From a virus (lineage: Duplodnaviria > Caudoviricetes), in IMG/VR virus record IMGVR_UViG_3300020577_012961, positions 1 through 64,000 of that record: a DNA stretch of 64,000 nt; one strand, written 5' to 3'. Made by a program: the position numbers and the translations under genes. The notes under the pieces were generated by a model, which was given only the letters and a program-made list of their open reading frames with translations, did no database searches and was not told the origin of the DNA. This document shows positions 20,373 through 50,508 of the stretch, piece by piece. The first letter of the stretch is position 1, and each line of letters opens with the position of its first letter.

Positions 20373-20762
20373 ATGCCGCTCGCCATCAACGGCCACCGCG
20401 GGATGGCCTACCAGAACGCCGGCAACGGGCGGCTCACCTGGGTGTGGAAGAACGGCAACCCCGTCTTCGACGACGGCCTTGTCGACCGCATCATGTCCCT
20501 GCTCGTCGAGCAGGAGTGGTGGGCGGACCGCGCACGGCGGCGTCACTCCCAACTCCTTGACGTTCACGAGGACGACGAGCGCACGAAGAGCCGACTCGAG
20601 CAATATGCACTCGACGCCCTCGATTCTCTGATTGGCGAAGGCGCCGTCAGAAACGTGGCGCCAGAGGCAAGCCGAGACATCAACGGCCGCTGGTCGCTGC
20701 TCATCCGCTACTCCACCGCCGCCGGGCCGCAGAAGCCGCTCGACGTGCCAATCTCGGTGTGA
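20373..20762 (+). CDS. Baseplate protein (Mu gp46-like)
   Basis: WWAD...SQL, YALDALDSLI pattern. Confidence 0.75.
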   Translation: MPLAINGHRGMAYQNAGNGRLTWVWKNGNPVFDDGLVDRIMSLLVEQEWWADRARRRHSQLLDVHEDDERTKSRLEQYALDALDSLIGEGAVRNVAPEASRDINGRWSLLIRYSTAAGPQKPLDVPISV

Positions 20763-22255
20763 CGATGGCATTCACTCCCGATCCCATCGAGACGCTCGAG
20801 GGCAACCAGGTCGCGCGCTACCGGAACAAGTTCCCCGACAAGGGGCTCGGGACCGAGGACTTCCTCGGCAAGCTGGCCCACGCCGAGGCGGCCGGGCACT
20901 ACTCGCAGCAGCAGCGCATGCGGCGCATCTCGCTCGACTCCGTGCCGCAGAACGGCAGCCTCTACGCCGCGCTGTCGAGCTGGGCAACGGCAATCGGCCT
21001 GCCTGACGGAAGCGGCGTCGACGGCAGCTATGGGCCGCTCAAGGCGACCGTCGCAACGGGCATCGCCGCGCAGGCGCGAGGAAACGTGGGTGCCACGGTA
21101 TGGAGTGGCATCGGCGATGCGCCCGTGCTCACCGGGCCGGACGGCATCACCAAATTCGTGATGACCGCGGCTGCGTCCATCGGCGGTGGCGGCACCTGCA
21201 ACATCGCGCTCAACGCCACCACCCCGGGCACCGCCGGCAACGTCTCCGCCGGCGACATCCTGACCTTCGACTCGCCGCCGGCAAACGTGCAGTCGACGGT
21301 GTCCGTCGTCACCGGCGCCACCAACGCGATCGACCAGGAGTCCATCCAGGCCTTGCTGGCGCGCATCCTCGACCGCTGGCGCAACCCGCCCAAGGGCGGC
21401 GCCGCGGCTGACTACCGCGCCTGGTGCGAATCGCTCGCGGGCATCGTGGAGGTCTACCTCTACCCGCTCCGAAAGGGGACGGGCACCGTCGACATGGTCG
21501 TCCTGCAGGCGGGTTCCAGCGCCTACAGCACCTCCACCCGCGACCCAGGAGCGACACTCGCAGGGCTCGTCCAAGCCTTGATTGACGAGGTGCGGCCGAT
21601 CACCGTCGAAAGTGCGCTCGTGCTGCGGCCGACACTCGGCACGGGCATGACCATCCGGCTCCGCGTCACGCCCAGCGCCGCCAAATACGTGTTCGACTGG
21701 AATTCAACGGGCGGCACCTGGACCGTCGACACCGTCGTCGACACCACGCACATCAAGCTGAATACCCTCGCGGACGCAACGCTGAAGGCGGCAATCGACA
21801 ACGCGCAGAAGCCGCGAATCCAGCTTCGCCGCACCGGCTCGGTGCTGCCGGTCCAGGTCCGATGCATCGCGTGGTCCGACGGTGGTGGCAAGACCACCCT
21901 GACCCTCGAGACTGCGCTCGTTGTGTCCAACACGCCCAGCGTCGGTGACGCGGTTTATGCCGGGGGACCGGTCGTCGCCGGTGTGGCCGACGCTGTGCTG
22001 GCCTACGTCGACAGCCTAGGGCCCTCGCGTGTGAGCGGCTACGCCGACCCCAACACGATCTGGGACGACACCTGCCGTATTGACCAGCTCCGCCGCACTG
22101 CGCTAGACGCTGTTGATGCGGATGGGACGCGCCTGGTCCTGTCTTTCGTGGCAACGCCCACCATCAACGGCAGCACCAGCGACGTGCAGGCGGCAGACGC
22201 CTCGAGCAGCCCGCCAGAGCTCCTTTTCGCCAAGTGGATTTCGGTTACGGCCTGA
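20759..22255 (+). CDS. Baseplate J-like wedge protein (Mu gp47)
   Basis: PGTAGN, DQES...L.RI....RNPPKGG...DY..W, GTGTVD; start may be ATG 20765. Confidence 0.88.
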   Translation: MTMAFTPDPIETLEGNQVARYRNKFPDKGLGTEDFLGKLAHAEAAGHYSQQQRMRRISLDSVPQNGSLYAALSSWATAIGLPDGSGVDGSYGPLKATVATGIAAQARGNVGATVWSGIGDAPVLTGPDGITKFVMTAAASIGGGGTCNIALNATTPGTAGNVSAGDILTFDSPPANVQSTVSVVTGATNAIDQESIQALLARILDRWRNPPKGGAAADYRAWCESLAGIVEVYLYPLRKGTGTVDMVVLQAGSSAYSTSTRDPGATLAGLVQALIDEVRPITVESALVLRPTLGTGMTIRLRVTPSAAKYVFDWNSTGGTWTVDTVVDTTHIKLNTLADATLKAAIDNAQKPRIQLRRTGSVLPVQVRCIAWSDGGGKTTLTLETALVVSNTPSVGDAVYAGGPVVAGVADAVLAYVDSLGPSRVSGYADPNTIWDDTCRIDQLRRTALDAVDADGTRLVLSFVATPTINGSTSDVQAADASSSPPELLFAKWISVTA

Positions 22256-22257
22256 TC

Positions 22258-23262
22258 ATGAGCACCGCCAGCGAGAAGGCGAAGCTGATCGCCAACCTGC
22301 CCGGTCGCCTGGACAGGTGGACCGACCTCACACCGGGCAGCGACCCAGACAAGGTGCTGGAGGTGAGCGCACGCGGCACGGACGAGGAAGTTGTCTTGCC
22401 GCTCGAAGCTCGTGCGGCAGACGCCAACCCACTCACCGCGACGGCGACCGGCATCGGAATGTGGGAAGAGGCCTTCGGGGACAGCAACACGAGCGTCGCA
22501 CTCTACGGCGGCGTAGAACAGCGTCGAGCGCACGTGTTGACGCGCCACCGGGAGCATGGAGCATCCACCCGCGATAACATCCTCGCCTCGCTGGTGGCGA
22601 TGTGCGGCTCGACGGCAGTGACACTGCTTGAGCACCGGCGCTCGGTGCTGACGGCTGCAAACTGGTACGAACTTCCCTCCTATCCGAGCATCGCCGGGAG
22701 CGCAAACACGGACCTTTCCATCGCGTGTGCCGACAACGCACCTGCATCGCGAGCAGGCGCTCAGGTGACGGTGCGCGTCACCCATGCCAGCGTCGAAGAC
22801 TTGACCCTGACGATCATCGCCCCAGACGCGACGCAGTCGAGTCCGATGCGATTTGGTTCGGGCTCGGTCACGGCTCAAGACTTCCGCTTCTTCTGGCCCG
22901 GCGCAGCGGGGAAGAGCATTACCGGCAATTGGACCATTCGCATCACAAACGCCAACGCAACCGTGGGCACGGTCGATGATCCGGCCGGTGATGGCATCAC
23001 TGGTCTGTTCGTCGAAGGCATCGGCTTCGGTCCGTACGACGGCGAAGGGCGCGGTGCCAACATCTTCGAGTGGTGTGCACTCGTGGATGAGGCAGCGGCA
23101 GTGTCTGGCATCTATGACCGAGCTGCGGTGGCCGCCGTCATCCAGCGATGGAACCAAGTGCACGGGCGGGGGTACTTGGCGCTCAAGAACCTCAACGGGG
23201 GCGACGCTGGCGTCTGGGGCGATTCCACCAATTCCTGCTGGGACGGCTTCATCTGGGAGTGA
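22258..23262 (+). CDS. Baseplate protein (gp48/YmfQ-like) with inserted proprotein-convertase P-domain-like module
   Basis: LPG, P.TA...I.MWEE, EQRRA N-terminal motifs; VTVRVTH..VEDLTLTIIAPD...GNWTIRIT insert. Confidence 0.68.
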   Translation: MSTASEKAKLIANLPGRLDRWTDLTPGSDPDKVLEVSARGTDEEVVLPLEARAADANPLTATATGIGMWEEAFGDSNTSVALYGGVEQRRAHVLTRHREHGASTRDNILASLVAMCGSTAVTLLEHRRSVLTAANWYELPSYPSIAGSANTDLSIACADNAPASRAGAQVTVRVTHASVEDLTLTIIAPDATQSSPMRFGSGSVTAQDFRFFWPGAAGKSITGNWTIRITNANATVGTVDDPAGDGITGLFVEGIGFGPYDGEGRGANIFEWCALVDEAAAVSGIYDRAAVAAVIQRWNQVHGRGYLALKNLNGGDAGVWGDSTNSCWDGFIWE

Positions 23263-23265
23263 CCG

Positions 23266-23847
23266 ATGGCGTGGCCCTACGACACATTCCTCGAGACGAT
23301 CTCCGCAGGTGTCACGACGGCCAAGAAGACGTTTGCCGACGGCATCCAGCAGGCGATCAATCGCCTGTTCTCGGGCGCGTACCGCGTGTGGAAGCTCGAA
23401 GTGAACGCCGCGGGCGGCCCCTCCACCAATGCCGGCAGCAACGAGATCTACGCGCTCGGCAAGATCGTGACCGCCAGTGACCTCTACGCGAGGCGACTCC
23501 GTGCAACGGGAAACTCGCTCGTGGTCGGCGACTTCGATTTCCCGACCGGCAACTTCGGGGCTTCAGCGACGGTTTCCAACGTCTCGGGCAACGACACGCA
23601 CTTCCGGTTCCAGGTCAACGCCGCCGGTGCAGGCGTGGCGGCGCCTGGCTCAGTGCGCCTGACCTTCAAGGACGGCGCCTACCCGACCGCTCCGCGTGCG
23701 ATCGGTGTCCTTCGAGCCGTCGACAACAACGCCGACTTCGCCTTCGGAGTGCAGGTTGACTGCACGACCACGACGGCCGTCCTGACGTGGTGGGGGACTC
23801 CGACCGCCGGCCGCTCGTACTACTTCGACGTGTTCGTCATCGGGTGA
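23266..23847 (+). CDS. Short tail fibre / putative receptor-binding protein
   Basis: Directly after gp48-like gene where Mu-like fibres lie; beta-rich C-terminal domain with V.LTF...YPTAP motif. Confidence 0.62.
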   Translation: MAWPYDTFLETISAGVTTAKKTFADGIQQAINRLFSGAYRVWKLEVNAAGGPSTNAGSNEIYALGKIVTASDLYARRLRATGNSLVVGDFDFPTGNFGASATVSNVSGNDTHFRFQVNAAGAGVAAPGSVRLTFKDGAYPTAPRAIGVLRAVDNNADFAFGVQVDCTTTTAVLTWWGTPTAGRSYYFDVFVIG

Positions 23848-23869
23848 GAATGACGTCGAAGTAGTACGA
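23815..23869. repeat. Perfect 17-bp inverted repeat at the convergent gene junction
   Basis: tcgtactacttcgacgt (23815-23831) / acgtcgaagtagtacga (23853-23869), 21-nt loop. Confidence 0.9.
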
Positions 23870-24268
23870 CCTCGAAGAGGTGGGCTTGTTCCAGTAGGTG
23901 ATGATCGAGCCCACGCTCACGGCGTCGACCTGGACGCCGAAGCCGAAGTCCGCAGGGTCGTCGGCGGCGCGCAAGACGGCGATGCCGTGCGATGCCGGCG
24001 CATCGAGGAAGCGCGCAAGGGAAATGCGCACCGCCGCGGGGTCGCTCTGGCCGGTGCCAGCGCTGTTTACCTGGAACCGGAAGGAGGTTGCTGTGCCGGT
24101 AACGTTCGACACGGTGGCCTCGGTCCCGTAGCTGCCGTTGGGGAAGTCGAAGTCCGTGACAAGGATTGGCTCTTCCCCGCGCGGCAGCTCTTCGGGGTTT
24201 GGCGCTGTGCAGCCTGCCAAGGCAGCTGCGAGCAGATACGCGAAAAGCAGGGGAGCACGGTGCCGCAC
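23837..24268 (-). CDS. Lipoprotein whose mature domain is paralogous to the tail-fibre C-terminal domain
   Basis: GGAGG RBS then GTG at 24268; MRHRAPLLFAYLLAAALAG-C lipobox (Cys20); 55/109 identical residues to 23266..23847 in an ungapped hand alignment. Confidence 0.85.
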   Translation of the reverse strand: MRHRAPLLFAYLLAAALAGCTAPNPEELPRGEEPILVTDFDFPNGSYGTEATVSNVTGTATSFRFQVNSAGTGQSDPAAVRISLARFLDAPASHGIAVLRAADDPADFGFGVQVDAVSVGSIITYWNKPTSSRSYYFDVILTR

Positions 24269-24281
24269 GACAGCCCTCCGT

Positions 24282-24779
24282 TCACAGCACGTTGTACATC
24301 GCGCGGTCGCGTTTGGAGTCGGTGACCACCTCGATGGCTCGCACGCGATCCAACCGGAACGTGCGCTCTTCTTGGCGGAGGTGGCAGTAGCCACCGAAAA
24401 GGTCCTTGTTGTATCCCTTCTCGCCGAGTTGGTACCCGGACTGCGCTCCGCCAAGCCACTCGGGCGTGACGACGCGAGAGCTCCATTCGCCGTGGGTGTC
24501 GCAGTAGACGATTTCGATGTCCCACTCCTTGCGGATGGCCATCGAGATGGTCCGGCGCCTGGGCCGCGGGTCGAACGGCGGCCGATCCAGGTCGGGCCCG
24601 GTCTCCCCGAGCTGGCGCTCCTCGAAGGGCAGGCCGAAGAAGTCCGTCGGCTGGGCCTCCACCGGAGTGGGTGGCCCTGGCTGGTAGATGGTCCGCTGCC
24701 GCTCGACCTCGGCGTTGTGGCGGCTGATGGCGTAGCCGATCACCGCAACGACGACCACAGCGAGAAGCACCAGTTCCAC
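24282..24779 (-). CDS. WYL-domain protein with N-terminal transmembrane anchor
   Basis: IEIVYCD..G..S.R.V.P and GYCHLRQEERTFRLDRV WYL motifs; hydrophobic N-terminus; no HTH. Confidence 0.82.
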   Translation of the reverse strand: MELVLLAVVVVAVIGYAISRHNAEVERQRTIYQPGPPTPVEAQPTDFFGLPFEERQLGETGPDLDRPPFDPRPRRRTISMAIRKEWDIEIVYCDTHGEWSSRVVTPEWLGGAQSGYQLGEKGYNKDLFGGYCHLRQEERTFRLDRVRAIEVVTDSKRDRAMYNVL

Positions 24780-24818
24780 GTCCGCCTCCCCGGCCTCGGG
24801 ATGGCCGGTTCGAGCTGA

Positions 24819-24847
24819 AGCCTACCGAACCTCACGGTCGGCTGCAA
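24819..24847 (-). promoter_or_regulatory. Sigma70-like promoter for the WYL-lipoprotein operon
   Basis: TTGCAG-17 nt-TAGGCT on - strand, about 40 nt upstream of GTG 24779 (GGGGAGG RBS). Confidence 0.55.
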
Positions 24848-24989
24848 CCCGCCCCCCGAGCGGTTGCTTGCCGACTGCAACAACAGCACTCCGGCAACCG
24901 CCGCCAGCGCGCCCGGCGTTCCCTCGGCAACGAGGGATCGGGGCGTCAGGCCGCTGGCGGCGGCCGCCGCTATCTCCGACGAGGAACCC

Positions 24990-26993: not shown

Positions 26994-29387
26994 ATGGGCC
27001 TCACCAACGTCCAGCGGGTCGTCTTCGACCTGAGCGGCGCGGCGCTCCCGTACAGCCAGAGCATCGGCACCGTCGCTGTCGGCGACGTGGTGCTGTTCCA
27101 AGTCCTCAATCGCACCTCCACGGGTTGCAACTTCTCGGGGCAGATCACCGACTCGGGCGCCGGCAACAACCTCCAGCAGATCACCTTCATCGACGACGGC
27201 ACGCGCGGCCGGACGGAGCTGTGGGGCTGCATCTGCACCGCCGCCGGCACGATGGTTATCAACATCGGCGCCGGCTCCGCGCCCTATGCCGGCTTCGACC
27301 ACATCTTTATCGAGATCGGTCAATGGTCGACGAGTGGCGGGACGGCCGCCATTGCCACGCACTCCGAGCTGGCGATCCCGTTCACCAGCTTCACGAGCCT
27401 GAGCGGCAACTCGCTCACCTTCGCCCTCGACGGCATCGTCGCCGCCTTCTTCGGTGGCGTCGGCATCGGCAACGACGTACCGACGCCGGACTCGGGTTGG
27501 ACGCTCACCAATCACGGGGCGCCGAACCAAGCCGTCTGCATGGTCGACAAGGATGTGGTGGCGGCCGACTCTCCGGTCACCCCGCACATCCAGTTCGGCG
27601 GCGGCGCTTTCGAGTACGGCAACTGCCTCGCCGTCATGGTGAGCTTCACCGCCTCGGGGGGAAGCGCCACCCCCGACGAGGACGACCCCGCCCCGCCCCG
27701 CGCCCCCTCGCGCAGCTGGGCCGCAGCCGCCCTGGCACTGGCGGCGCTGTCCGGCGGCGTCGACGAGCTGCCCCCGCAGGCGGCGGCCACGATCGTCGAG
27801 GACGTTCCGGCCTACGCCTCGCCGCCCCCGCTTCTCGCGGCGCGCGCTGCGCCGACGGTCGCACCGGATGAGTCGTGGTTCGCGTCGGCCTACGACGACG
27901 AGGCCATCCTCTGCCCCTACCGCTGCGTCGGGCCGGTCGCCCAGCAGCAGCGCACCATCGCGGCACAGGCCGCGGCGTACCAGCAAGGGCCACACGAGGA
28001 TCTGTGGTTCCAGAGCACGCCGGACGACGCCCCCACGTCAACGTGGGCACCGCCTCCGGTCGCATGGCTCTACGCCGAAGAGGCGAGCACCGGGCTGTCG
28101 GCCGCGGCCGACGAGCTTCCGGTCACAACCACATCCATCGTCGACGACCTGCCGACCTGGCAGCCGGCGCCACCTCCCTACGTTCTGCTCTTCGCGGAGG
28201 AGGCCTCGCAGGTCTACGCGCCGACGGACGAGAGCTGGTTTGCCAGTGCCGTCGATGACGAAGCGGTGCTGTGTCCGCTCCGTTGTGGGGGGCCGCTCGG
28301 TATCCAGCGCACTGCAGCCGCGGCGCAGGCCGCCGCCTCGATGCAGAGCCTCGGCGAAGAGTGGCCGACACCACCGCCGACGGCGATCGTTGACGACGAT
28401 CCGGGGTTCGTTCCACCGCCGCCTCCTGCCCTGCTCCTCTTCGCCGAAGAGGCGTCGCAGGGCCAGACGGCGCCCGACGATTCCTGGTTCGCAAGCGCGG
28501 TAGACGAAGGCCCGCTTTCCTGGCCGCCCCCGCCGTACCCGCTCCCTGCGCCCGGGCTTGTCGCGCCGTTCGACGAGTGGATGCCGCAGCCAGGCATCTT
28601 CGGTCTAGACGACGAGGCGACGCAGCCGGTCACCCCGCCGCGGTTCGATCTGCCGTCGTTCGGTCGGGCTGCAGCGACGATTCCGACCTTCGTTGACGAG
28701 CTCTACTTCCAGAGCACACCCGACGACACTGAGCCGGGCGCCTATCCGCCGCCGCCAAACCTGCTTCTCTACGCGGAGGAGAGCGCCGCCGCGTTCGCTC
28801 CAGCGGTCGATGATGTTCCGTCGATCGTTGACGAGGATAGCTCCTGGCCTCCGCCGCCGCCCTCGCGACGGGTGGCGGTCGTCAGTGGTGCCCACGAGGA
28901 AGCGCCCTTCGGCGTCGTCGATGACGACACGGGGGCGTGGTTCCGACCTGCAGCTGCACGGGTTCCCGTTGCGGCGGCTACGGCCGTGGACGAGTTCGTT
29001 GGCACGCTGCCGGTGGATGACGAGGTGGTCCAGCCGGTCACGCCGCCGCGGTTCGACGTGCTGGCGGCGCGTGCGTCGGCCGCCGCGTGGGCGAATGCGG
29101 ACGAGCTCTTCTTCGCCGGCATCGTCGATGACGACCCGACGCAGCTTCAGCCGCCCCCGCCGCAGTGGACCGTCCGGATCGGACGGGCTCCTGACGACAG
29201 CGCGGCCGGCCTCTTCCGCGGCGCGCCCCGCCCCCTCTGCGGCCACCTGTCCGAGCGATCGGAGGTGACTGTGGAGTTCGCCGAATGGGCCGAGGGCAAC
29301 ACCCTGCTGCGCGAGTGGCCGGACGCGGTTGCCACCGTCACCGAGGGCGAGGCCGTCTCCGCTGTCCTGACTGAAAGGCGCTGCTGA
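26994..29387 (+). CDS. 797-aa protein: N-terminal beta domain plus acidic Pro-rich repeat region
   Basis: Repeated SWFASA, [YF]AEE, FQSTPDD and QPVTPPRFD motifs; coupled to neighbours. Confidence 0.7.
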   Translation: MGLTNVQRVVFDLSGAALPYSQSIGTVAVGDVVLFQVLNRTSTGCNFSGQITDSGAGNNLQQITFIDDGTRGRTELWGCICTAAGTMVINIGAGSAPYAGFDHIFIEIGQWSTSGGTAAIATHSELAIPFTSFTSLSGNSLTFALDGIVAAFFGGVGIGNDVPTPDSGWTLTNHGAPNQAVCMVDKDVVAADSPVTPHIQFGGGAFEYGNCLAVMVSFTASGGSATPDEDDPAPPRAPSRSWAAAALALAALSGGVDELPPQAAATIVEDVPAYASPPPLLAARAAPTVAPDESWFASAYDDEAILCPYRCVGPVAQQQRTIAAQAAAYQQGPHEDLWFQSTPDDAPTSTWAPPPVAWLYAEEASTGLSAAADELPVTTTSIVDDLPTWQPAPPPYVLLFAEEASQVYAPTDESWFASAVDDEAVLCPLRCGGPLGIQRTAAAAQAAASMQSLGEEWPTPPPTAIVDDDPGFVPPPPPALLLFAEEASQGQTAPDDSWFASAVDEGPLSWPPPPYPLPAPGLVAPFDEWMPQPGIFGLDDEATQPVTPPRFDLPSFGRAAATIPTFVDELYFQSTPDDTEPGAYPPPPNLLLYAEESAAAFAPAVDDVPSIVDEDSSWPPPPPSRRVAVVSGAHEEAPFGVVDDDTGAWFRPAAARVPVAAATAVDEFVGTLPVDDEVVQPVTPPRFDVLAARASAAAWANADELFFAGIVDDDPTQLQPPPPQWTVRIGRAPDDSAAGLFRGAPRPLCGHLSERSEVTVEFAEWAEGNTLLREWPDAVATVTEGEAVSAVLTERRC

Positions 29388-30106: not shown

Positions 30107-30109
30107 CCG

Positions 30110-31690
30110 ATGCTTCGCTTGCTCTTCTCGCTGCTCGGGGCCTTGCTGCTCCTTGCGCCCTCTCCGGCCGCCGCGCAGTCACCGCCGCTGCGCACCATCA
30201 TGGTGAACGGCACGGCCGTCACCGTTCCATGGTCCGTCCTCAACTTCACTGGCACCGGGGTCACCTACAGCAACGACGCGCTCAACAAGCGCATGGTGAT
30301 CAACATCTCGGGGGTCTCGGGGTCCACCTCCCAGAACTACCTCTTCGCCGGCCCCACGTCGGGAAGCGGGACTCCGTCCTTCCGATCTCTCGTCCTCGGA
30401 GACCTTCCTGGGACGGTCAAGTCGAGGCCCTACTTCGACATCCGCGACTATGGTGCCGTCGCCGGCTCCGACGTGGCGCCGGCGGTGCAAGCGGCGTTCG
30501 ATGCGGCGTGCGCCGCGGGCACCGGCACGGTCGTCATGCCGTCGCGCGACTCGTCGGGCGCTGCCGTGGTGTGGCTCTGGCAGTCGGCGGTCAGCGTCAA
30601 CTGCGCGCCCGGCGGCATCGGGCCGTTCCCCATCCTCAACCTCCAGGGTCCGAGCACGGTACTCGTCACCGCTGGATCGGGCGCTCCCTACGTGGCGCTC
30701 ACCGTCTCCAACGCAAGCCGCTTCACCGTCGAAGGGATCAAGTTCTACGGCACCCGCGACACCGCCCACCCGACGACCGCGCCCAACCCGCTCTCGGGGG
30801 TGATCTCGGCCACCAAGGTGCGGGTGCTCCGCTGCGAGTTCAACGGGATCATGCTCGACCGGCCCGTCGGCCCGCTGTGCCTCTTCCCCGACAACGCGGT
30901 GGTGTTCGGCCAGGACGTCGAGGTCGACGACGTGGTCTTCGCCGCGGTCGGGGGCTCCTGCCAGGCCGTCGTGCGCGCCAAGGACTACGTCAACCTCTCG
31001 GTGCGCAACACCTACTTCATCGACTTCTTCACCCTCGACAACGTGAACATGATTCCGGCCTCCGGCGACTACGTCTATTCGTCGATTGTCGCGCTCGACC
31101 CCGACTCAACCACCGACGTGAGCCACTTCGGCGCGAGCCGGGTGCTCATCGACAACGTCCGAATCGACGAGGGGACCGGCGGCGGGGGCGAGCAGGTGAT
31201 CATCGCCAACACCTTCCCCGTCTCCGGCCGCCCGCCGGTTCCCTACGTGCAGGTGAACGCGGTGCAGGAGATGGTGGGGCCGTCGGCGAGCACCACGGGG
31301 CTGCGGATCGAGGGCGCCAAGAAGGTCCACGTCAGGGACTGGCTCGTCTACCACGGCAGCGTCTCGAGCACCGCTCTCCTGCTCCGCAACGTCGACGAGG
31401 CCACCATCCAGGGCACCTACACCATCGCCTCGGGCGGGTCGATCACGAAGGTGGACGCCGACAGCTCAGTGGGGGTGCTTCGGCTCATCGACTCGCACCT
31501 CAGCGCGTCGGGGGTCACAGCGGTGCAGATCATCCAGGAAAAGTCTGCCTGGCCGTTCAACCTCTTCAACTTCACCAACGCCACGCGCCCGGCGGCCAAT
31601 GCCGTGCGGCCCGGCGCGCTCATCTGGAACACGCAGACCAGCCAGGTGCAAGTGAGCGACGGCGCCAACTGGCTCATCGTCGGGCCGTAG
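30110..31690 (+). CDS. Pectate-lyase-3-like beta-helix depolymerase/tailspike with signal peptide
   Basis: FDIRDYGAV..DVAPAVQAAFDA motif, beta-helix repeats; MLRLLFSLLGALLLLAPSPAAA-Q signal. Confidence 0.7.
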   Translation: MLRLLFSLLGALLLLAPSPAAAQSPPLRTIMVNGTAVTVPWSVLNFTGTGVTYSNDALNKRMVINISGVSGSTSQNYLFAGPTSGSGTPSFRSLVLGDLPGTVKSRPYFDIRDYGAVAGSDVAPAVQAAFDAACAAGTGTVVMPSRDSSGAAVVWLWQSAVSVNCAPGGIGPFPILNLQGPSTVLVTAGSGAPYVALTVSNASRFTVEGIKFYGTRDTAHPTTAPNPLSGVISATKVRVLRCEFNGIMLDRPVGPLCLFPDNAVVFGQDVEVDDVVFAAVGGSCQAVVRAKDYVNLSVRNTYFIDFFTLDNVNMIPASGDYVYSSIVALDPDSTTDVSHFGASRVLIDNVRIDEGTGGGGEQVIIANTFPVSGRPPVPYVQVNAVQEMVGPSASTTGLRIEGAKKVHVRDWLVYHGSVSSTALLLRNVDEATIQGTYTIASGGSITKVDADSSVGVLRLIDSHLSASGVTAVQIIQEKSAWPFNLFNFTNATRPAANAVRPGALIWNTQTSQVQVSDGANWLIVGP

Positions 31691-31742
31691 CCCGGGCGGT
31701 GCATCCCTCAACTGCGCCTGTCCCGACAGGCGAGGAGATCCC

Positions 31743-39834: not shown

Positions 39835-40770
39835 CTACGCCGCCTCGGTCTCCTCGGTGTCAGCCTGCATGCCCTCGCCGCGGAGCAGGCCGGCCGCCTC
39901 GCGGGCGAGCCGGGCGGCGGTGAAGACCGCGTACTTGTCGCCGCGGAGCACCTTGATCCAGTGGCCGAGGTAGGGCAGGTGCTGCTCGTCGAGGAGCGAC
40001 GGCACACCGAAGTCCGCGCAGAAGAAGGCGGCGCCGATCTCGGCGACCAGCTCCTCGGCGGCGTAGGAGTCGCTGCCGAAGCGGCCGGTGAGGTTGCGGG
40101 CCTTGCGGCTGGTGTGGCCGGTCCAGTGCACGTGCTCGTGAGCCAGCACCGCGATGTAGGCCGCCTCGCTGTCGAAGGACGCGCGCGGCGGCATGCGGAT
40201 GACGTCGAGAGCGGGGACGTAGCAGGCGGCGGCGCCACCGTGCTCGACCCGCGCGCCGGTCGCGGCCAGCGCCGCCAGCGCCTCGGCGTGGAGGGTCTCC
40301 GGCTCGACCGCCGGCGCCGCCGGGGCGCCCGGCTCCTGCCCGGCCGCCCACTCGATCTGCGCGTGGTTGAAGACGGTGTAGGTGCGCAGCACGGGGCGGC
40401 GGCGGGAGCGCTTCTCGGTGGTCTGCTCCCCCTCGCCCTCCGGCTTGTCGCCGGCCTTGCGCTCGACGAACTGGAAGAAAGTGACGAGGGTGCCGTGCTC
40501 GCCCTTGCGGACGTGGCTCCCGGGGTAGTTCTTGCTGACCTGGTTGAAGGTGTACCAGCGGGGGTCGGCGTAGCCGCTGAGCCAGACCATCAGCAGGTTG
40601 ACGCCGCGGTAGACGTGGCCGGTGTGGCCGTTGTGCGGCGCCACGGGCCCGGCGGCGTTGCTGGCGCTCCAGGGCTGCTGCCAGGGCGCGAGCGTGCGCT
40701 TGCCGGCGGCGAGCTCCTCGAGGGCGTTCACGATGCGGTCGGTGATCTCCTGGTAGTTGTCGCGAGCCAT
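39835..40770 (-). CDS. ardC: ArdC-like antirestriction/ssDNA-binding protein with zincin domain
   Basis: PWQQPW, YRGVN, WYTFNQ, VRKGE, VFN..Q, HEHVHWTGH, YAAEELVAE. Confidence 0.9.
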   Translation of the reverse strand: MARDNYQEITDRIVNALEELAAGKRTLAPWQQPWSASNAAGPVAPHNGHTGHVYRGVNLLMVWLSGYADPRWYTFNQVSKNYPGSHVRKGEHGTLVTFFQFVERKAGDKPEGEGEQTTEKRSRRRPVLRTYTVFNHAQIEWAAGQEPGAPAAPAVEPETLHAEALAALAATGARVEHGGAAACYVPALDVIRMPPRASFDSEAAYIAVLAHEHVHWTGHTSRKARNLTGRFGSDSYAAEELVAEIGAAFFCADFGVPSLLDEQHLPYLGHWIKVLRGDKYAVFTAARLAREAAGLLRGEGMQADTEETEAA

Positions 40771-40796
40771 CGTCGTTCTCCGTCGTTGATGAGGAG

Positions 40797-40825
40797 AACA
40801 TAGCGCTCGCTTCGATATTTGTCAA
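40797..40825 (-). promoter_or_regulatory. Strong sigma70 promoter for ardC
   Basis: TTGACA-17 nt-TATGTT with AT-rich upstream element. Confidence 0.8.
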
Positions 40826-41112: not shown

Positions 41113-41322
41113 GGCACACAGCGCAGGCACAATCGCTCCGAAGTCCGCTCCGCTCCTGCGCAACCGAGCGGATTTTGAGTCCCCTGCGTCTGCCATTCCG
41201 CCACCCGGGCGTTCTGCTACTTCACCGTCGCTGACGCCCTCCTCGCATCCACTCCCGCCTCCGTACCTTTCGAGCCCGTTCCGGGCACAGCGGCACCCCC
41301 CGAAGGCACATTCCTGGGCACA
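41113..41322 (-). other. attP: attP: 5' half of tRNA-Leu(CAA) flanked by TGTGCC arm-type repeats
   Basis: tRNA fragment 6 bp after int stop; TGTGCC copies at 41113, 41126, 41284, 41305, 41317 on both sides of the core. Confidence 0.8.
41170..41210 (-). pseudogene. tRNA-Leu(CAA) 5' fragment (not a complete tRNA)
   Basis: GCCCGGG TG GCGGAATGGCAGACGC A GGGGA CTCAAAA TCC; no T-arm or 3' acceptor strand follows. Confidence 0.85.
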
Positions 41323-42347
41323 CTGACGCTGACGGCCGCGACGGCTGCGGCCCGGGCGTCGGAGAACGTGTGCGCGTAGCGGTTCACCATGTCGAGCGTC
41401 TTGTGGCCGAGGATATCACGGATGACCGCGAGCGGGACGCCGTCGCCGTGGAGGTAGCTGGCGAGCGTGTGCCGCAGGTCGTGCGGACGCAGCTTCCCGA
41501 CCTTCGCGGTCTCCCGGGCGTTGTGCCAGGCCGTGTAGTGGTTCGACTCGGCGAAGACGCGGCCAATCGCCGGGCCGGGGCCGCGCTGCACCGCCATCAT
41601 CCACAGCGCCTCCCACGCCCCCTCGTTGAGCGGGACCGATCTCGGCGCCCGGTTCTTCGTGATCGGACCCGGAAGGTCGATCGCGCCGGTGGCGTAGTTG
41701 ATCATCTCCCAGCGCACCATCGTCGCCTCGGTGGGTCGCATGCCGGTGTTCGCGCGCAGCAGCGCCCACGGCAGCACCTCGCGCCCGCGGGTGCCCCCGA
41801 GGGCCGCCAAGAAGCGCAGCAGCTCCTCGCGCGTGAGGATGCGCCAGGCGGCGGCGGTGTAGTGGTGCTCGGGGTTCTTCGCCAGCGGCGCCGCTGGCAT
41901 GATCTTCGCGACGTTGGCCGCGAACTTGAGCACCTGCCGAAGCGTCGACAGCTCTTTGCAGACGGTGCCGGCGCCGACCTGCTTCATCCGCTCGGCCCGG
42001 AACCGCTCCTGTGCTTCGACGTCGATGGTGCGCGGGTCACACTCGGGGCTGAAGAAGCGGCCGATCACGCGCAGGTGTTTCTCGCGCATCTTGTCCGTCT
42101 CCGACGAGAACGCCCGACCCTTCGACCGCGCCTGCTCTTCCTTCCACTCGAGGAACTTCACCCCGAGGATCTTGAGCGTGTAGTGGCCCTCGCGCTTGCG
42201 CTTCGCCTCGAGCTTGTCGACCTCGTCTCGCTCGACCCGAAGAGCCTCGACGCGCGTGCGCTTTCGTGTGGAGAAACGGACCACGTCTCCGTCGACGTAG
42301 AGCTTTGACCAGTAGTACGGGGAGCCGGGTCGTCGGTAGAGGGACAC
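41217..42347 (-). CDS. int: Tyrosine integrase
   Basis: TGMR..E, TKN...R.VPL, HDLRH, LGH...MVNRY catalytic residues; GTG start 42347. Confidence 0.93.
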   Translation of the reverse strand: MSLYRRPGSPYYWSKLYVDGDVVRFSTRKRTRVEALRVERDEVDKLEAKRKREGHYTLKILGVKFLEWKEEQARSKGRAFSSETDKMREKHLRVIGRFFSPECDPRTIDVEAQERFRAERMKQVGAGTVCKELSTLRQVLKFAANVAKIMPAAPLAKNPEHHYTAAAWRILTREELLRFLAALGGTRGREVLPWALLRANTGMRPTEATMVRWEMINYATGAIDLPGPITKNRAPRSVPLNEGAWEALWMMAVQRGPGPAIGRVFAESNHYTAWHNARETAKVGKLRPHDLRHTLASYLHGDGVPLAVIRDILGHKTLDMVNRYAHTFSDARAAAVAAVSVSVPRNVPSGGAAVPGTGSKGTEAGVDARRASATVK

Positions 42348-42529
42348 TCGAGGGCCTCCAGCGGGGCGCGTGGTTCGAGAGCCGCGAGCAGGTCTGCGCC
42401 ACGATACCACCGCTTCCGCCCCGCGGCGCGGTGGGCGACGTGGCGACGGAGCCAGCGCTTCTCCACGCCGAGAAGGGCAGAGGCCTCCTTCTCCGGATAG
42501 AGGGCGTTCTCGGCGAGGACGGCGGGCAC
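42158..42529 (-). CDS. Excisionase-like HTH protein
   Basis: EKEASALLGV...WLRR...RWYR..DL; overlaps int 5' end. Confidence 0.6.
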   Translation of the reverse strand: MPAVLAENALYPEKEASALLGVEKRWLRRHVAHRAAGRKRWYRGADLLAALEPRAPLEALECPSTDDPAPRTTGQSSTSTETWSVSPHESARASRLFGSSETRSTSSRRSASARATTRSRSSG

Positions 42530-42531
42530 CG

Positions 42532-42987
42532 CTATGCGCCTCCCGTGGCCAGCTCGCCGCCGTCGACCACCTCGACGCCATGCCGCCGCCCGACCGCCAC
42601 CAGCAGCTCGGCGAGCACGCGGCGGTGGCACCTGGTCGCTGTGCCACACCAGCAGCAGAGCACCACCCGCCCGCGCCCGAGCAGCTCGCGCCACGCCGCG
42701 CGCCTCCGGCGGTAGCTCGCCCGCATCTCCTCGACGTAGAGCTCGCGGTACCAGGCGAAGGCGAAGTCGAGGCGCTCTTCCTCGGTCGAGCCGATCGGGG
42801 CGCCCCTCTTCCGCTTCGCGAGCCGCTTGCAGGCGAGCCCGGCGTCGAGGAGGTCATCCGACGGCGCGAACGGGTCGGCGGCGGCGCCCCCGCCGCGTCG
42901 GGTGACGTTGAAGGCGTCGGGCCCGCGGTAGCCGGCGATCTTGGCGCGGGGGTTGGGAAGGCGCGCCGTGTGGACGAGGAGGCGCAT
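42532..42987 (-). CDS. DUF488-like protein
   Basis: Y..EMR...W..LL....VVLCCWC....CHRRVLA. Confidence 0.6.
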   Translation of the reverse strand: MRLLVHTARLPNPRAKIAGYRGPDAFNVTRRGGGAAADPFAPSDDLLDAGLACKRLAKRKRGAPIGSTEEERLDFAFAWYRELYVEEMRASYRRRRAAWRELLGRGRVVLCCWCGTATRCHRRVLAELLVAVGRRHGVEVVDGGELATGGA

Positions 42988-45522: not shown

Positions 45523-46226
45523 CAGGCGTTCCGCGCAACGAACGGCGCTGCCCGGCGGAGCACCTCGCGCGCCCGCTCGACGTCGAAGGTGTCGGCGGCG
45601 GCGCGCACCCCGCTCTCCATGTCGATCCAGAAGTCGCGGTGGACGCGCTGGGCCACGTCCTCGAGCACCTGCGTGACGTTGTCGGGGGTGATGCCGCCGG
45701 CGAAGCCGACGCGAACGAAGGACCGCGGGGTGGGCCAGCGCTCGGGCACCGCGCCGCGGCCCCCCGAAGGGTCGAAGAGGACGCTGGCGCGCCCGGGCGG
45801 AGCCTCGGCAGCGATCTTGGCCGCGCAGTTCTCCGCCCAGGTCAGCTCCGTCACGCTGCGGGCCTGCAGGATGAACTCGGCCGCGGGGTAGCGCTGGGCC
45901 AGCTGGCGCGGGCCCGGGTCCTCAGGGTTCCAGCCGTTGAGCTGCACCCGCTCGAAGGCGCCCGAGAGCCCCCCGACAAAGGAGTGCTCCCCTGCCAGGG
46001 CGTCCCGCGCGATGGCGCCGCAGAGGTGGGCCGACAGGCGCATCCCGGGCCCAGCGATGGAGAGGAGCGTGTCCAGCCACTCCTTCGACGGGTAGCGGGG
46101 CTGGCCGATGCGCTTCGCCGAGAAGAGGAGTCCCCACTCGACGAAGGGGAACTCGTGCGAGAGCGCCACCAGCTCGCCGGGGTCGACGCCGTCGTCGGCG
46201 CCGGTGATCGTCACCATGGTCAGCAT
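45522..46226 (-). CDS. Phosphoribosylanthranilate-isomerase-like TIM-barrel protein (phage family)
   Basis: VTITGAD, HLCG, RVQLN, LFDPSGGRG, GFAGGI.PDNV, WIDMESGVR. Confidence 0.75.
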   Translation of the reverse strand: MLTMVTITGADDGVDPGELVALSHEFPFVEWGLLFSAKRIGQPRYPSKEWLDTLLSIAGPGMRLSAHLCGAIARDALAGEHSFVGGLSGAFERVQLNGWNPEDPGPRQLAQRYPAAEFILQARSVTELTWAENCAAKIAAEAPPGRASVLFDPSGGRGAVPERWPTPRSFVRVGFAGGITPDNVTQVLEDVAQRVHRDFWIDMESGVRAAADTFDVERAREVLRRAAPFVARNA

Positions 46227-48664
46227 CAGCCCACTGCCTCTCTGCGCGCCTCGCGCGCGTCCATGTCCTCGGCCGGCCGCCCGTCGTCCCGGCGCACCCA
46301 GATCCCGGTCGAACCCAGGACCCACATCCCGGTCGCCGCAGCCAGCAGCGCGGTGAGCAGCGACTCGGCGATGGCCTTTGCGGCGCCCACCGGCACGGCG
46401 TTTCCGATCCGCTCCCGGTGCTTCGCCCGGCTCTTCCCCGCCAGCTGCAGCGGTGCGCCGTCGAGCGTGGCGGGCAGCCCCTGCAGCGCGGCGAGCTCCA
46501 GGTCGGTGAGCGGCCGGTGCCACGTCCCGTCCTTCGGGGACAGGATCACCGGCACCTTGCCGTCGGGTAGCTGCTTCACGCCCTGGTCGAGGAGGCGCAG
46601 GGCCTCGGCGATCGTCATGGGCTGGTAGCAGGGCGGCAGCGGCGCGCCGGCGGCAATGCGCGGGTCCGCGGCGGCGGTGGCGCTGGCGGGGGCGGCCTCG
46701 GCCCAGCCGGCGACGCGCGTGCGGCTGTCGGCCACCGCCAGCGGGCCGTTGTCGATCTGCCCGTGGCCGGTGACGGCGTAGGCCGGGCGGGCGGGGTCGA
46801 GCACGCCGTAGGCGCCGCTGGTCTCGCGCGGGGTGCAGCCGATGGCGATGCGCGGGTCGCCCACGCTGGCGGCGCCGCTCGTGGGAATGGTCGCCCCGGT
46901 GACGGTGGGGGCGGGCGAGTCCCATGCCCCCATGCGCAGGATGTCGTTGAAGGCGGGGCCCTTGTTCCCGAGGGGGATGCGCGGGTCGGCGACGGAGGGC
47001 GCGCCACTGCCCGGCCGCCCAGCCCCCATCACGGTCGGGCCCGGCTCCTCCCACTCGGTGACGGCGTACTTGTTCCGGTGGCGGGTCGGGTTGTCGCAGA
47101 GCGCTACCCGCGGGTCGGCCACGCTGTGGCTGCCGTTGCTCGGGTAGCTCTCGCCGCAGACGGTCGCGGCCGCCTCGTCCCAGCCCCCGACGCCGTACCG
47201 CCCGCCGCCCCAGGTCCCATTTCCCTCCGCGCTGAGCGAGTTCGGCAATGCGTCGGATTCACCCCGATTTGGAAGGTTATCCGCGGCCACCCTCGGATCG
47301 GCGACCGCCGCCACCGCGTTAGAGCTCGACACGCGGGCGGCGCCGGTGACCGCCCCGAGCGGCTCGTTCCAGTCGCCCACCCCCATCAGCCCCGGTGAGC
47401 CGTTGAAGCGGTCCGCGTTGCGCGCGGTGGCCCCGTCGTAGGCGATGCGGGGATCTCCGACCGACCGCGGCCCGGTCGACGGGTGGCCACCGCTGGTGAC
47501 GGTGGCGCCCGGCTCGGTCCACTCCTGCACCCCGTAGGCGCCGTCGTGCCAGTTGACGCGCTCGTCGGCGACTGCAGCGGGCCCGGTGCGCACGTCGGCG
47601 CGGCCGCGAACGGTGGCGGCGGGCTCGCCGGCGTCCATCACCCCGAGGGCGCCGCGGCGGGGTGCGTGGTCGAGGGCGACGTGGCCGGCTACATCACCTA
47701 CAACTTGTTCCTGTTGTTTTCCCGGAACCAGCCTCGGGTCGGCCACCGCCCCCGCCCCGTTGCCGGGCCCGCCGATGACGGTGCGCGCCGGCTCGTCGAA
47801 CGCGCCCACCGCGTACTTGCCCTTGAACCAGTGCACCTCGCCGTCGGTCTTCTCGCCCTTCTGCTCCCAGCGCTTCCGCGCCTCGGGGTCGCGCGCCTTC
47901 ATCCCGGGCAGGTCGCGCCAGTCCCCACCCGGCGGGATGAGCGCCAGCCGGATCCAGTTGAGCAGTGACAGCCGCGGCAGCCGGTGCATGGGCCCCGCCG
48001 CCTCCGTCTCGGGCAGCGGCAGCTCGGCGAGGATGTCCCCGCAGCTCTTCCCGGGCTTCAGCGGCGGTCGGAACACGTAGGCCGGCACGCGCCCCGGGTG
48101 CCGCGCCACCAGCAGGTAGCGGCGCCGGTGCGCCCCGAGGTCCCCGATCCGCCGGAGGTCGTGCGCCTCCTCGTGGAAGACGTACCCGTAGCCCCCGAGC
48201 AGCTGGCGCACCTGCATCAGCCACTTCGCCCCCCGGCTGGTCACCCGCGGGACGTTCTCGAGGACGATCAGGCCGGGCGGCGTCGTCCAGGTCTCCAGCA
48301 GCAGGAACAAGCCCTTGAAGACCAGGCTGTTCATCTCCTGGTACTTCTCCGTCTCGGCCGTCTCCGACGACAGCAGCCCCGAGTGCCCCTTGCAAGGCGG
48401 CGACGTGAAGACGCAGTCGGGCGCGGTCTCGCCCCACGCGGAGCGCAGCTCGGCCGGCGTCATGGTGGCGAGGTCGGCGGCGGTGGCCGGGCCGGAGGCG
48501 ATCCGCTCGTAGTCCTCACAGGCGAGGGCGTCGAAGTCGACGCCACCGGCGTTGGCGAAGCGGGCGTGGTCGCCGCCCAGGCGCGCCTCGGCGAGGTCGA
48601 AGCCGCGGGCACCAGCGCCCAGGCCGGCGAAGAGGAAGCCAGCGCGGAAGGTGTGGCGGCTCAT
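46226..48664 (-). CDS. DNA (cytosine-5) methyltransferase with repeat-expanded variable region
   Basis: LFAGLG, SPPCKG, ENV, R.RY motifs and C-terminal IGNAVP. Confidence 0.9.
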   Translation of the reverse strand: MSRHTFRAGFLFAGLGAGARGFDLAEARLGGDHARFANAGGVDFDALACEDYERIASGPATAADLATMTPAELRSAWGETAPDCVFTSPPCKGHSGLLSSETAETEKYQEMNSLVFKGLFLLLETWTTPPGLIVLENVPRVTSRGAKWLMQVRQLLGGYGYVFHEEAHDLRRIGDLGAHRRRYLLVARHPGRVPAYVFRPPLKPGKSCGDILAELPLPETEAAGPMHRLPRLSLLNWIRLALIPPGGDWRDLPGMKARDPEARKRWEQKGEKTDGEVHWFKGKYAVGAFDEPARTVIGGPGNGAGAVADPRLVPGKQQEQVVGDVAGHVALDHAPRRGALGVMDAGEPAATVRGRADVRTGPAAVADERVNWHDGAYGVQEWTEPGATVTSGGHPSTGPRSVGDPRIAYDGATARNADRFNGSPGLMGVGDWNEPLGAVTGAARVSSSNAVAAVADPRVAADNLPNRGESDALPNSLSAEGNGTWGGGRYGVGGWDEAAATVCGESYPSNGSHSVADPRVALCDNPTRHRNKYAVTEWEEPGPTVMGAGRPGSGAPSVADPRIPLGNKGPAFNDILRMGAWDSPAPTVTGATIPTSGAASVGDPRIAIGCTPRETSGAYGVLDPARPAYAVTGHGQIDNGPLAVADSRTRVAGWAEAAPASATAAADPRIAAGAPLPPCYQPMTIAEALRLLDQGVKQLPDGKVPVILSPKDGTWHRPLTDLELAALQGLPATLDGAPLQLAGKSRAKHRERIGNAVPVGAAKAIAESLLTALLAAATGMWVLGSTGIWVRRDDGRPAEDMDAREARREAVG

Positions 48665-48665
48665 C

Positions 48666-50327: not shown

Positions 50328-50508
50328 TGGAGCCCCTCCCCTCGAACGCCGGCCGCATGTCCGGCAGCAGGACCGACACCCGGCACTCGGCCCCGCAGCG
50401 CGGGCAGTCGGTCTCCCCCACGTTGTCGGTCTTCCGCTCCAGGCTGTCGGGAGGGGTCAGCTCGGCGCCGCAGATCGGGCAGAAGCGGATGGAGTCGACG
50501 TGGGCCAC
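50320..50508 (-). CDS. Zn-ribbon protein
   Basis: CPICG, CPRCG. Confidence 0.55.
   Translation of the reverse strand: MAHVDSIRFCPICGAELTPPDSLERKTDNVGETDCPRCGAECRVSVLLPDMRPAFEGRGSSG

Follow-up and report, generated by a model that had tools for sequence, protein, structure and literature searches.

Receptor-blocking lipoproteins and a comparable phage locus

In phage T5 the gene for the lipoprotein Llp adjoins that for the receptor-binding protein pb5, and Llp blocks the phage's own receptor, averting both superinfection and the loss of progeny; purified pb5 alone likewise blocks T5 infection, and in other coliphages exclusion lipoproteins are encoded downstream of gpJ (10.1101/2022.06.28.497910). 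Ltp of Streptococcus thermophilus phage TP-J34 is reported to be a prophage-encoded surface lipoprotein that confers superinfection exclusion (PMC3952083). Here we analyze a locus of related layout in a 64,000-nt stretch of DNA (the window), which comprises positions 1-64,000 of the 92.8-kb IMG/VR virus record IMGVR_UViG_3300020577_012961, a metagenome-derived record about 75% complete, and has a G+C content of 70%. At this locus a candidate short tail fibre gene, F1, is met tail to tail by a minus-strand gene, L1, which encodes a predicted lipoprotein with a body that is an old, diverged copy of the fibre head, or tip, domain. By analogy with Llp and Cor we propose, at a probability of roughly 0.45, that L1 is an exclusion or anti-readsorption lipoprotein with a specificity taken from the fibre.

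Comparison with described systems indicates which parts of this arrangement are familiar and which are not. As in T5, a small phage lipoprotein gene lies beside the gene for a (here putative) receptor-binding protein, in the window in convergent orientation with an 11-nt overlap. However, Llp is unrelated to pb5, whereas the body of L1 is a paralogue of the fibre tip, and Llp acts by binding the periplasmic face of FhuA and closing its outer loops allosterically. Cor of phages T1, phi80, N15 and HK022 and the BASEL lipoproteins encoded downstream of gpJ resemble L1 in occupying a variable lipoprotein slot right after host-recognition genes, but Cor has no homology to L1 and is not derived from a tail tip protein. 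Ltp acts on DNA injection, is built of helix-turn-helix-like repeats and is not known to derive from a receptor-binding protein. The G segment of Mu and the C segment of P1 (S/S', U/U') carry an inverted second copy of a fibre C-terminus, tail to tail with the first and following a Mu-like baseplate module; in contrast, the window has neither a Gin/Cin-type invertase nor crossover repeats, and L1 is a gene in its own right with a predicted export signal, not an alternative exon that lacks a promoter. Finally, BppL/ORF49 of TP901-1 and other short lactococcal receptor-binding proteins share with F1 a length of about 160-190 amino acids and a plan in which a neck joins an N-terminal helix to a C-terminal beta-sandwich head, and the bIL170 head matches the F1 and L1 models at Z 5.3-5.5. 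This likeness is weak and at the level of architecture (TM-score about 0.2), with no sequence relation and a different type of baseplate. Exclusion lipoproteins beside receptor-binding genes are thus known; what is new is a predicted lipoprotein, proposed as a receptor blocker, with a body that is a fibre-tip paralogue, and our literature search found no paper on a lipoprotein or decoy derived from a receptor-binding protein. The features of the pair are as follows (pLDDT, predicted local distance difference test; GC3, G+C content at third codon positions).

23266..23847, plus strand: candidate short tail fibre or receptor-binding protein gene, F1, 193 aa (position after baseplate J and gp48, orthologue N-termini, model)
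23512..23844, plus strand: F1 head (tip) domain, residues 83-193 (family profile score, family search)
23837..24268, minus strand: lipoprotein gene, L1, 143 aa (GTG start, GGAGG, GC3 0.81-0.87, model pLDDT 86.7)
24209..24268, minus strand: predicted signal peptide with lipobox L-A-G-C, residues 1-20, Cys20 (PROSITE PS51257 rule, modelled helix 6-17)
23846..24172, minus strand: fibre head copy, L1 residues 33-141 (55/109 identities to the F1 head)
24275..24279, minus strand: Shine-Dalgarno GGAGG with a 6-nt spacer to the GTG start (read directly in the sequence)

A fibre head and its convergent, exported copy

The minus-strand gene at 24268-23837 is real. Its GTG start at 24268 lies 13 nt past the stop of the next minus-strand gene upstream, and GC3 in its frame is 0.81-0.87 versus 0.65 in a longer, TTG-started extension from 24454; that longer reading frame was rejected, since it has the composition of another frame and is not coding. 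The same 143-aa product was called independently on three other Logan assemblies (L005-L007) from contigs 100% identical to the window, and no population variation was found across these assemblies. Samples that contain the phage are SRR32380193, SRR32380195 and SRR31616005. The earlier note on this DNA had described the two genes as meeting tail to tail, as can be read in the sequence from their stops at 23845-23847 (F1) and 23837-23839 (L1), which give the 11-nt overlap. The N-terminus of L1, MRHRAP-LLFAYLLAAALAG-C20, combines a basic region, a hydrophobic core and a lipobox and satisfies PROSITE PS51257, so that the LAG-C20 signal proposed from inspection is a convincing prediction of a Sec/signal peptidase II lipoprotein. 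The six frames of the 64 kb offer about 2300 possible starts, only 11 of which satisfy a loose lipoprotein rule, and L1 alone among these 11 has both a canonical lipobox and a hydrophobic core. Since it is the sole convincing lipobox in the window, the signal is not a by-product of an Ala/Leu/Gly-rich composition. The same scan revealed no spanin-like lipoprotein from which the Gram type of the host might be told. Residues 21-32 form a Pro/Glu-rich tether between the signal and the head copy. Searches with L1 gave no Pfam, PHROG or PADLOC family match at E up to 0.1, Llp and Cor included, and a homologue search returned L1 alone.

The relationship between the two products is close. BLASTP aligns F1 residues 83-191 with L1 residues 33-141 at 55/109 identities and 73/109 positives without gaps (E 7e-34), exactly the count that had been made by hand, with every quoted motif present. 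An exhaustive search with a head-domain profile identified 276 proteins of 120-1350 aa at E < 1e-3, nearly always with the domain at the extreme C-terminus. A few of them bear an F1-type N-terminus and are orthologous short fibres. Among 150 family members listed, about 30 are long proteins with Sec signals, and the head domain is therefore not confined to virions; these long secreted proteins are probably cellular. Examples of 320-1290 aa that end in the head domain are P0009, P0013, P0031 and P0044. A 198-aa head-domain protein with a Sec-like signal peptide is also encoded directly 5' of a tape-measure gene in an unrelated siphovirus-like contig (L010:6001-6597).

Structure prediction, suggested in the earlier note for both domains, gave confident beta-sandwich heads with the same strand order, although the fold itself is generic. 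In the AlphaFold model of F1 (pLDDT 81.8) a helix (residues 19-35) is joined through a linker of low confidence to a beta-sandwich head (78-193, pLDDT > 93), and the L1 head is mostly above 90 with a dip at residues 81-90. In this the F1 model resembles a short receptor-binding protein. Foldseek with whole F1 against the PDB placed the TP901-1 receptor-binding protein at the top (E 3.8e-4, TM-score ~0.2), followed by R-pyocin fibre tips, and a viral structure library returned uncharacterised phage proteins and annotated tail fibres (E 1.5e-7). An independent structure search found a common set of chains at Z of at most 7.7 for F1 and 8.3 for L1, with 5axg, 3vmn, 5mqm, 6f7k and 7dd9 matched by both models at similar Z. 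These neighbours include the C-terminal beta-sandwiches of dextranases, other glycosidases and lyases, modules like carbohydrate-binding module family 3 (CBM3), the tailspikes of Det7, LKA1 and phi297, and the fibre heads of adenovirus, reovirus and lactococcal phages. For these models a Z at that level indicates a common beta-sandwich and not family membership. A PDB sequence search with the family profile gave no match, and the ESM Atlas no usable one.

A second instance of the pair was found, of the convergent fibre/copy kind that the earlier note had proposed to look for. A word-indexed search with F1 identified P0155 (F2), 53% identical over its full length, on a 1.3-kb contig (L013) that carries a gp48-like gene, F2 and then a convergent open reading frame, L2, with an 11-nt overlap as in the window. 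L2 (L013:988-1317, minus strand) is a copy of the head domain, 109 aa of which precede the contig end, where its N-terminus is cut off. The G+C content of this contig is 58.5% versus 70% in the window, and the two phages are therefore far apart. Head identities are 65% for F1-F2, 56% for L1-L2, 49% for F1-L1, 52% for F2-L2, 53% for F1-L2 and 51% for L1-F2. A tree of the family places the four proteins together at 100/100 support, on a long branch apart from all other members; within this clade L1 and L2 are sisters at 91/61, on branches two to three times as long as those of the fibres. Four-taxon informative sites number 6 for the split between fibres and lipoproteins and 1 and 2 for the other splits. 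Approximately unbiased (AU) tests of one old duplication versus pairing of each copy with its own fibre gave p 0.56 and 0.30, and a tree joining F1 with L1 was not rejected (p 0.56). The 100/100 clade and the convergent copy in two phages support F1 and L1 as a true pair of paralogues, and bear out the duplication and inversion of the fibre tip envisaged in the earlier note. The plain reading, which the AU tests do not settle as to branching, would be one old duplication inherited along with the fibre. The expectation that each lipoprotein would be closest to its neighboring fibre did not hold, as L1 and L2 are nearest each other by identity and informative sites, with the same reservation about the AU tests.

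Rates of substitution suggest that the copies are maintained. For L1-L2 the nonsynonymous distance (dN) is 0.42 and the synonymous distance (dS), which is saturated, about 1.9, a ratio of about 0.22; the values for F1-F2 are 0.24, about 1.6 and 0.15, and those for F1-L1 are 0.43-0.44, 1.0-1.5 and 0.28-0.42. Neutral decay, for which the earlier note gave a ratio of about 1, is thus not what the copies exhibit, and the estimates show purifying selection on both. With the same layout and overlap in L013 and a dN/dS of about 0.2 between phages, the copies look selected.

The direction of change can be read from the wider family. A family profile built without F1, F2, L1 and L2 scores the fibres at 110 (F1) and 99 (F2) bits and the copies at 43 (L1) and 44 (L2), and all 39 of 39 outgroups are nearer F1 than L1. 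Family-consensus residues matched by one copy only number 24 for F1 versus 9 for L1 (p 0.009), and the 17 columns conserved at >= 85% are kept at 14 positions in F1 and 6 in L1. The segments in which F1 and L1 diverge are the best-conserved motifs of the family, TFKDGxWTxxP and a T..T......GTP stretch that precedes the last strand, which are present in the fibres and lost differently in L1 and L2. By contrast, all four proteins agree at 39 positions, many of them in family-variable stretches (DFDFP, FRFQVN, VLRA.D, GVQVD, RSYYFD). Identity between F1 and L1 is 60% in family-variable versus 43% in conserved columns, a trend that is not significant (p 0.10). We read this pattern as copies that lost a fibre-only constraint, such as assembly or contact with the neck, and kept features specific to their lineage. 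The divergent segments, earlier taken for possible specificity loops, more likely mark the lost constraint of fibre assembly.

Genomic setting and the convergent slot in relatives

The remaining features around the pair are listed below.

20759-22255, plus strand: Baseplate_J gene, preceding the gp48-like gene (Pfam E 5.4e-34)
22234..23262, plus strand: Mu gp48 / P2 gpI-like baseplate wedge gene, directly 5' of the fibre (Pfam PF10076 Phage_Mu_Gp48)
5' of the fibre, plus strand: portal gene (Portal_Mu, E 9e-40)
5' of the fibre, plus strand: sheath gene (phrog_165, E 8e-37)
5' of the fibre, plus strand: gp43-like gene (DNA_circ_N)
5' of the fibre, plus strand: baseplate hub gene (phrog_177)
23815..23869, no strand assigned: hairpin over both stop codons (17-nt perfect inverted repeat from the SYYFDV codons of both genes)
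24282..24779, minus strand: gene for a 165-aa protein with an N-terminal transmembrane helix and a WYL-like domain, TM-WYL (Pfam WYL E 1.2e-7; own GGAGG, GTG at 24779)
24780..24989, no strand assigned: divergent intergenic region, 85-210 nt by the start chosen for the next plus-strand gene (the only place for a promoter of the minus-strand pair)
41217-42986: tyrosine integrase gene (basis for a temperate lifestyle)

The plus strand 5' of the fibre is the Mu-like contractile-tail module of a myovirus, in which a gp46-like gene (GP46 match) also precedes the gp48-like gene. The PF10076 match of the latter (E 2.3e-6) falls under the curated cut-off; its orthologue in L013 ends in the same ...WDGF.WE motif. 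From its order after Baseplate_J and the gp48/I-like gene, F1 occupies the slot of Mu S and P2 H. Its N-terminus, MAWPxD..E.I.AGVTTAKK, is common to the orthologues P0004, P0005, P0008, P0055, P0129 and P0155, and together with the model this makes the 193-aa product a candidate short tail fibre or receptor-binding protein. Neither the sheath nor the fibre has a match among cultured phages, and searches of isolate genomes, IMG/VR and JGI metagenomes for further pairs or relatives were empty.

The gene convergent to the fibre varies among relatives. In L003 it encodes a lipoprotein (MRYALPLLALLLAAC; LAAC, Cys15) with a body unrelated to L1 that includes a coiled-coil-like stretch, and in L012 an exported Cys-rich protein, also unrelated to L1. 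The P0055 contig has a convergent gene for a 190-aa product that shares 4 nt with the fibre gene, and gene calling on the P0008 contig gave none in this position. By analogy with Llp/pb5 and the gpJ-downstream lipoproteins, this position may be a variable slot for exported proteins tied to a host-recognition gene. The L003 relative (SRR29078159) also has inserted genes between its gp48-like gene and fibre orthologue (L003:1680-6286), including one for a 637-aa helicase with C-terminal helix-turn-helix and sigma-70 region 4-like parts.

TM-WYL and L1 form a minus-strand two-gene unit, 13 nt apart, opposed to the late operon. The Pfam match of TM-WYL is partial (profile positions 49-70 of 70); PADLOC WYL models match at E 1.3e-9 and 4.2e-8, and a search of 5.8 billion proteins returned only the protein itself. 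A membrane protein of a different kind near the L003 fibre region repeats its N-terminal helix and RRHN..ER motif. The divergent intergenic region contains TTGCAG-17-TAGGCT, which matches 6/12 consensus positions. The hairpin over the two stops has a predicted RNA folding energy of -43.1 kcal/mol (z -4.2) for the plus strand and -39.4 kcal/mol (z -4.3) for the minus strand, is not followed by a U-tract, and has as its counterpart in L013 a 22-nt repeat that is 82% complementary; it may be a bidirectional terminator or RNA end for both transcripts. Recent gene conversion is not needed to account for its 17-nt identical stretch, as codons are identical at 32/55 identical residues and dS is at least 1; the identity over SYYFDV follows from strong codon bias.

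Elsewhere in the window, the tyrosine integrase indicates a temperate phage. Just past its stop a tRNA-Leu(CAA)-like 5' half (41170-41210, minus strand) is likely the core of the attachment site and could identify the host; ARAGORN found no complete tRNA gene in the window. A clear Sec signal peptide (MLRLLFSLLGALLLLAPSPAAA-Q) opens the 527-aa product of a tailspike-like late gene (30107-31690, plus strand), and nearby genes at 31740 and 36220 likewise begin with signal peptides. A 797-aa acidic, proline-rich protein (26994-29387, plus strand) with the short repeated motifs D[DE]SWFASA, LFAEEAS and LWFQSTPDD has no Pfam or PHROG family match. The early or accessory region encodes an ArdC-like anti-restriction protein with a zincin peptidase domain (39835-40821, minus strand) and two large DNA methyltransferases, C5 and N6/N4 (46226-50456, minus strand).

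Proposed function and its alternatives

The sequence shows that the head of the short fibre was duplicated long ago; the copy lies inverted, tail to tail with the fibre gene, and is furnished with a ribosome-binding site, a Sec/lipoprotein signal and a tether that is short and flexible. In the mechanism we propose, the product would be exported, receive a lipid at Cys20 and stay attached to the membrane, so that its head would lie in the periplasm, in the cell wall or at the cell surface. There it would recognise the envelope ligand to which the fibre tip binds, with no need for fibre assembly, so that the ligand would be occupied, sequestered or misrouted and related phages would fail to adsorb to the lysogen or infected cell. 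Such a block would also spare progeny from loss on debris. Because lineage-specific residues of this fibre are kept while family motifs are lost, L1 is taken to bind the ligand of the fibre tip without assembling.

Several observations weigh against this proposal. Only two instances of the pair are known, and in one the N-terminus of the copy is cut by the contig end. Relatives of the phage that might reveal its host were not found in isolate genomes or among cultured phages. Many residues conserved in the family are altered in L1, and a change of binding specificity may have come with them. A generic beta-sandwich, found mostly on glycan-active enzymes and tailspikes, may have as its ligand an abundant glycan that would be hard to mask one to one. 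In a Gram-negative host an ordinary lipoprotein is oriented towards the periplasm and has no access to the outer face touched by the fibre. Finally, a consensus scan for a sigma-70 promoter found no convincing one for the minus-strand pair.

The preference for glycan-active neighbors in the structural comparisons also suggests a function unrelated to exclusion, in which L1 would be a lysogenic conversion lipoprotein and its head a carbohydrate-binding module on the lysogen envelope; its possible effects would include holding exopolysaccharide, aggregating kin cells or docking the secreted tailspike-like enzyme. We regard this as rather unlikely. The model heads do resemble mostly the C-terminal beta-sandwiches of dextranases, glycosidases and lyases and CBM3-like modules, about one fifth of the listed family members are long and secreted, the phage encodes other Sec-signal proteins, including that at 30107-31690, and many conserved sites differ between L1 and the fibre. 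However, L1 descends from the F1 lineage and not from a cellular member of the family, its tail-to-tail link with the fibre gene is kept in two distant phages, and the slot in related phages is filled by other exported or lipoproteins, as are slots of the Llp/Cor type. The 13-nt spacing of L1 and TM-WYL, each preceded by GGAGG, raises a different prospect, an envelope sensor of two parts in which the L1 head reports the receptor or an arriving fibre and TM-WYL signals to the cytoplasm, with abortive infection or control of the prophage as the outcome. Defence regulators carry WYL domains as ligand sensors, and both the PADLOC match (E 1.3e-9) and the L003 membrane protein with the shared helix and RRHN..ER motif near a fibre region would fit. 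Yet the Pfam match covers only the end of the profile, TM-WYL has no effector or DNA-binding domain and no relatives among the proteins searched, the membrane protein and lipoprotein are not adjacent in L003, and the L013 contig ends before any WYL gene could show; a sensor therefore seems quite improbable.

An inverted, tail-to-tail copy of a fibre C-terminus has the geometry of the invertible segments of Mu and P1, and its arms form an imperfect palindrome, so that L1 could be a silent spare tip or remnant, a reservoir for tip exchange by Mu G-like inversion or by recombination, with an incidental lipoprotein signal. Several results make this very improbable. The 92.8-kb record, about 75% complete, has no match to the serine invertase family PF00239, for which control searches matched in 12/14 genomes, and no reverse transcriptase (PF00078); the domain boundary has no crossover repeats, the arms are just 61% identical in DNA, and a single orientation is present in four assemblies and in L013. 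Moreover, the copy is equipped with a ribosome-binding site, a start codon and a signal peptide of its own, is under purifying selection and has lost motifs kept by all fibres. A switch of the Mu G/P1 C type is ruled out by these data as far as they go. A diversity-generating retroelement was likewise rejected, as there is no reverse transcriptase and the changes between the copies are of all kinds, not of adenine only. The shared fold and 50% identity would in principle allow L1 to act as a poison subunit or trap, its head co-assembling with or binding the fibre heads of incoming or progeny phage, and the earlier note had suggested that incoming fibres might be trapped by hetero-oligomerisation. 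But incoming phage bring fibres that have already folded, the assembly of progeny fibres is cytoplasmic while L1 would be exported, and L1 has lost the family-conserved motifs that are the likeliest assembly surfaces. We consider this scarcely credible.

With L1 read as a receptor-directed exclusion or anti-readsorption lipoprotein, a broader idea can be put forward tentatively, namely that phages can make such factors by duplicating a receptor-binding tip and exporting it as a lipoprotein, so that the blocker inherits the specificity of the virion; we hold this general form to be possible but doubtful. Neither Llp nor Cor is related to the protein that it keeps from binding, which is why the targets have had to be found case by case. 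If the proposal is true, it describes a simple evolutionary route to exclusion and an exclusion factor recognisable from sequence alone. Comparison of fibre and copy would also sort residues, those lost in the copy reflecting needs of the fibre only and those kept in both being candidates for ligand contact. Such copies would further provide natural soluble or anchored binding heads for finding the receptors of uncultured phages.

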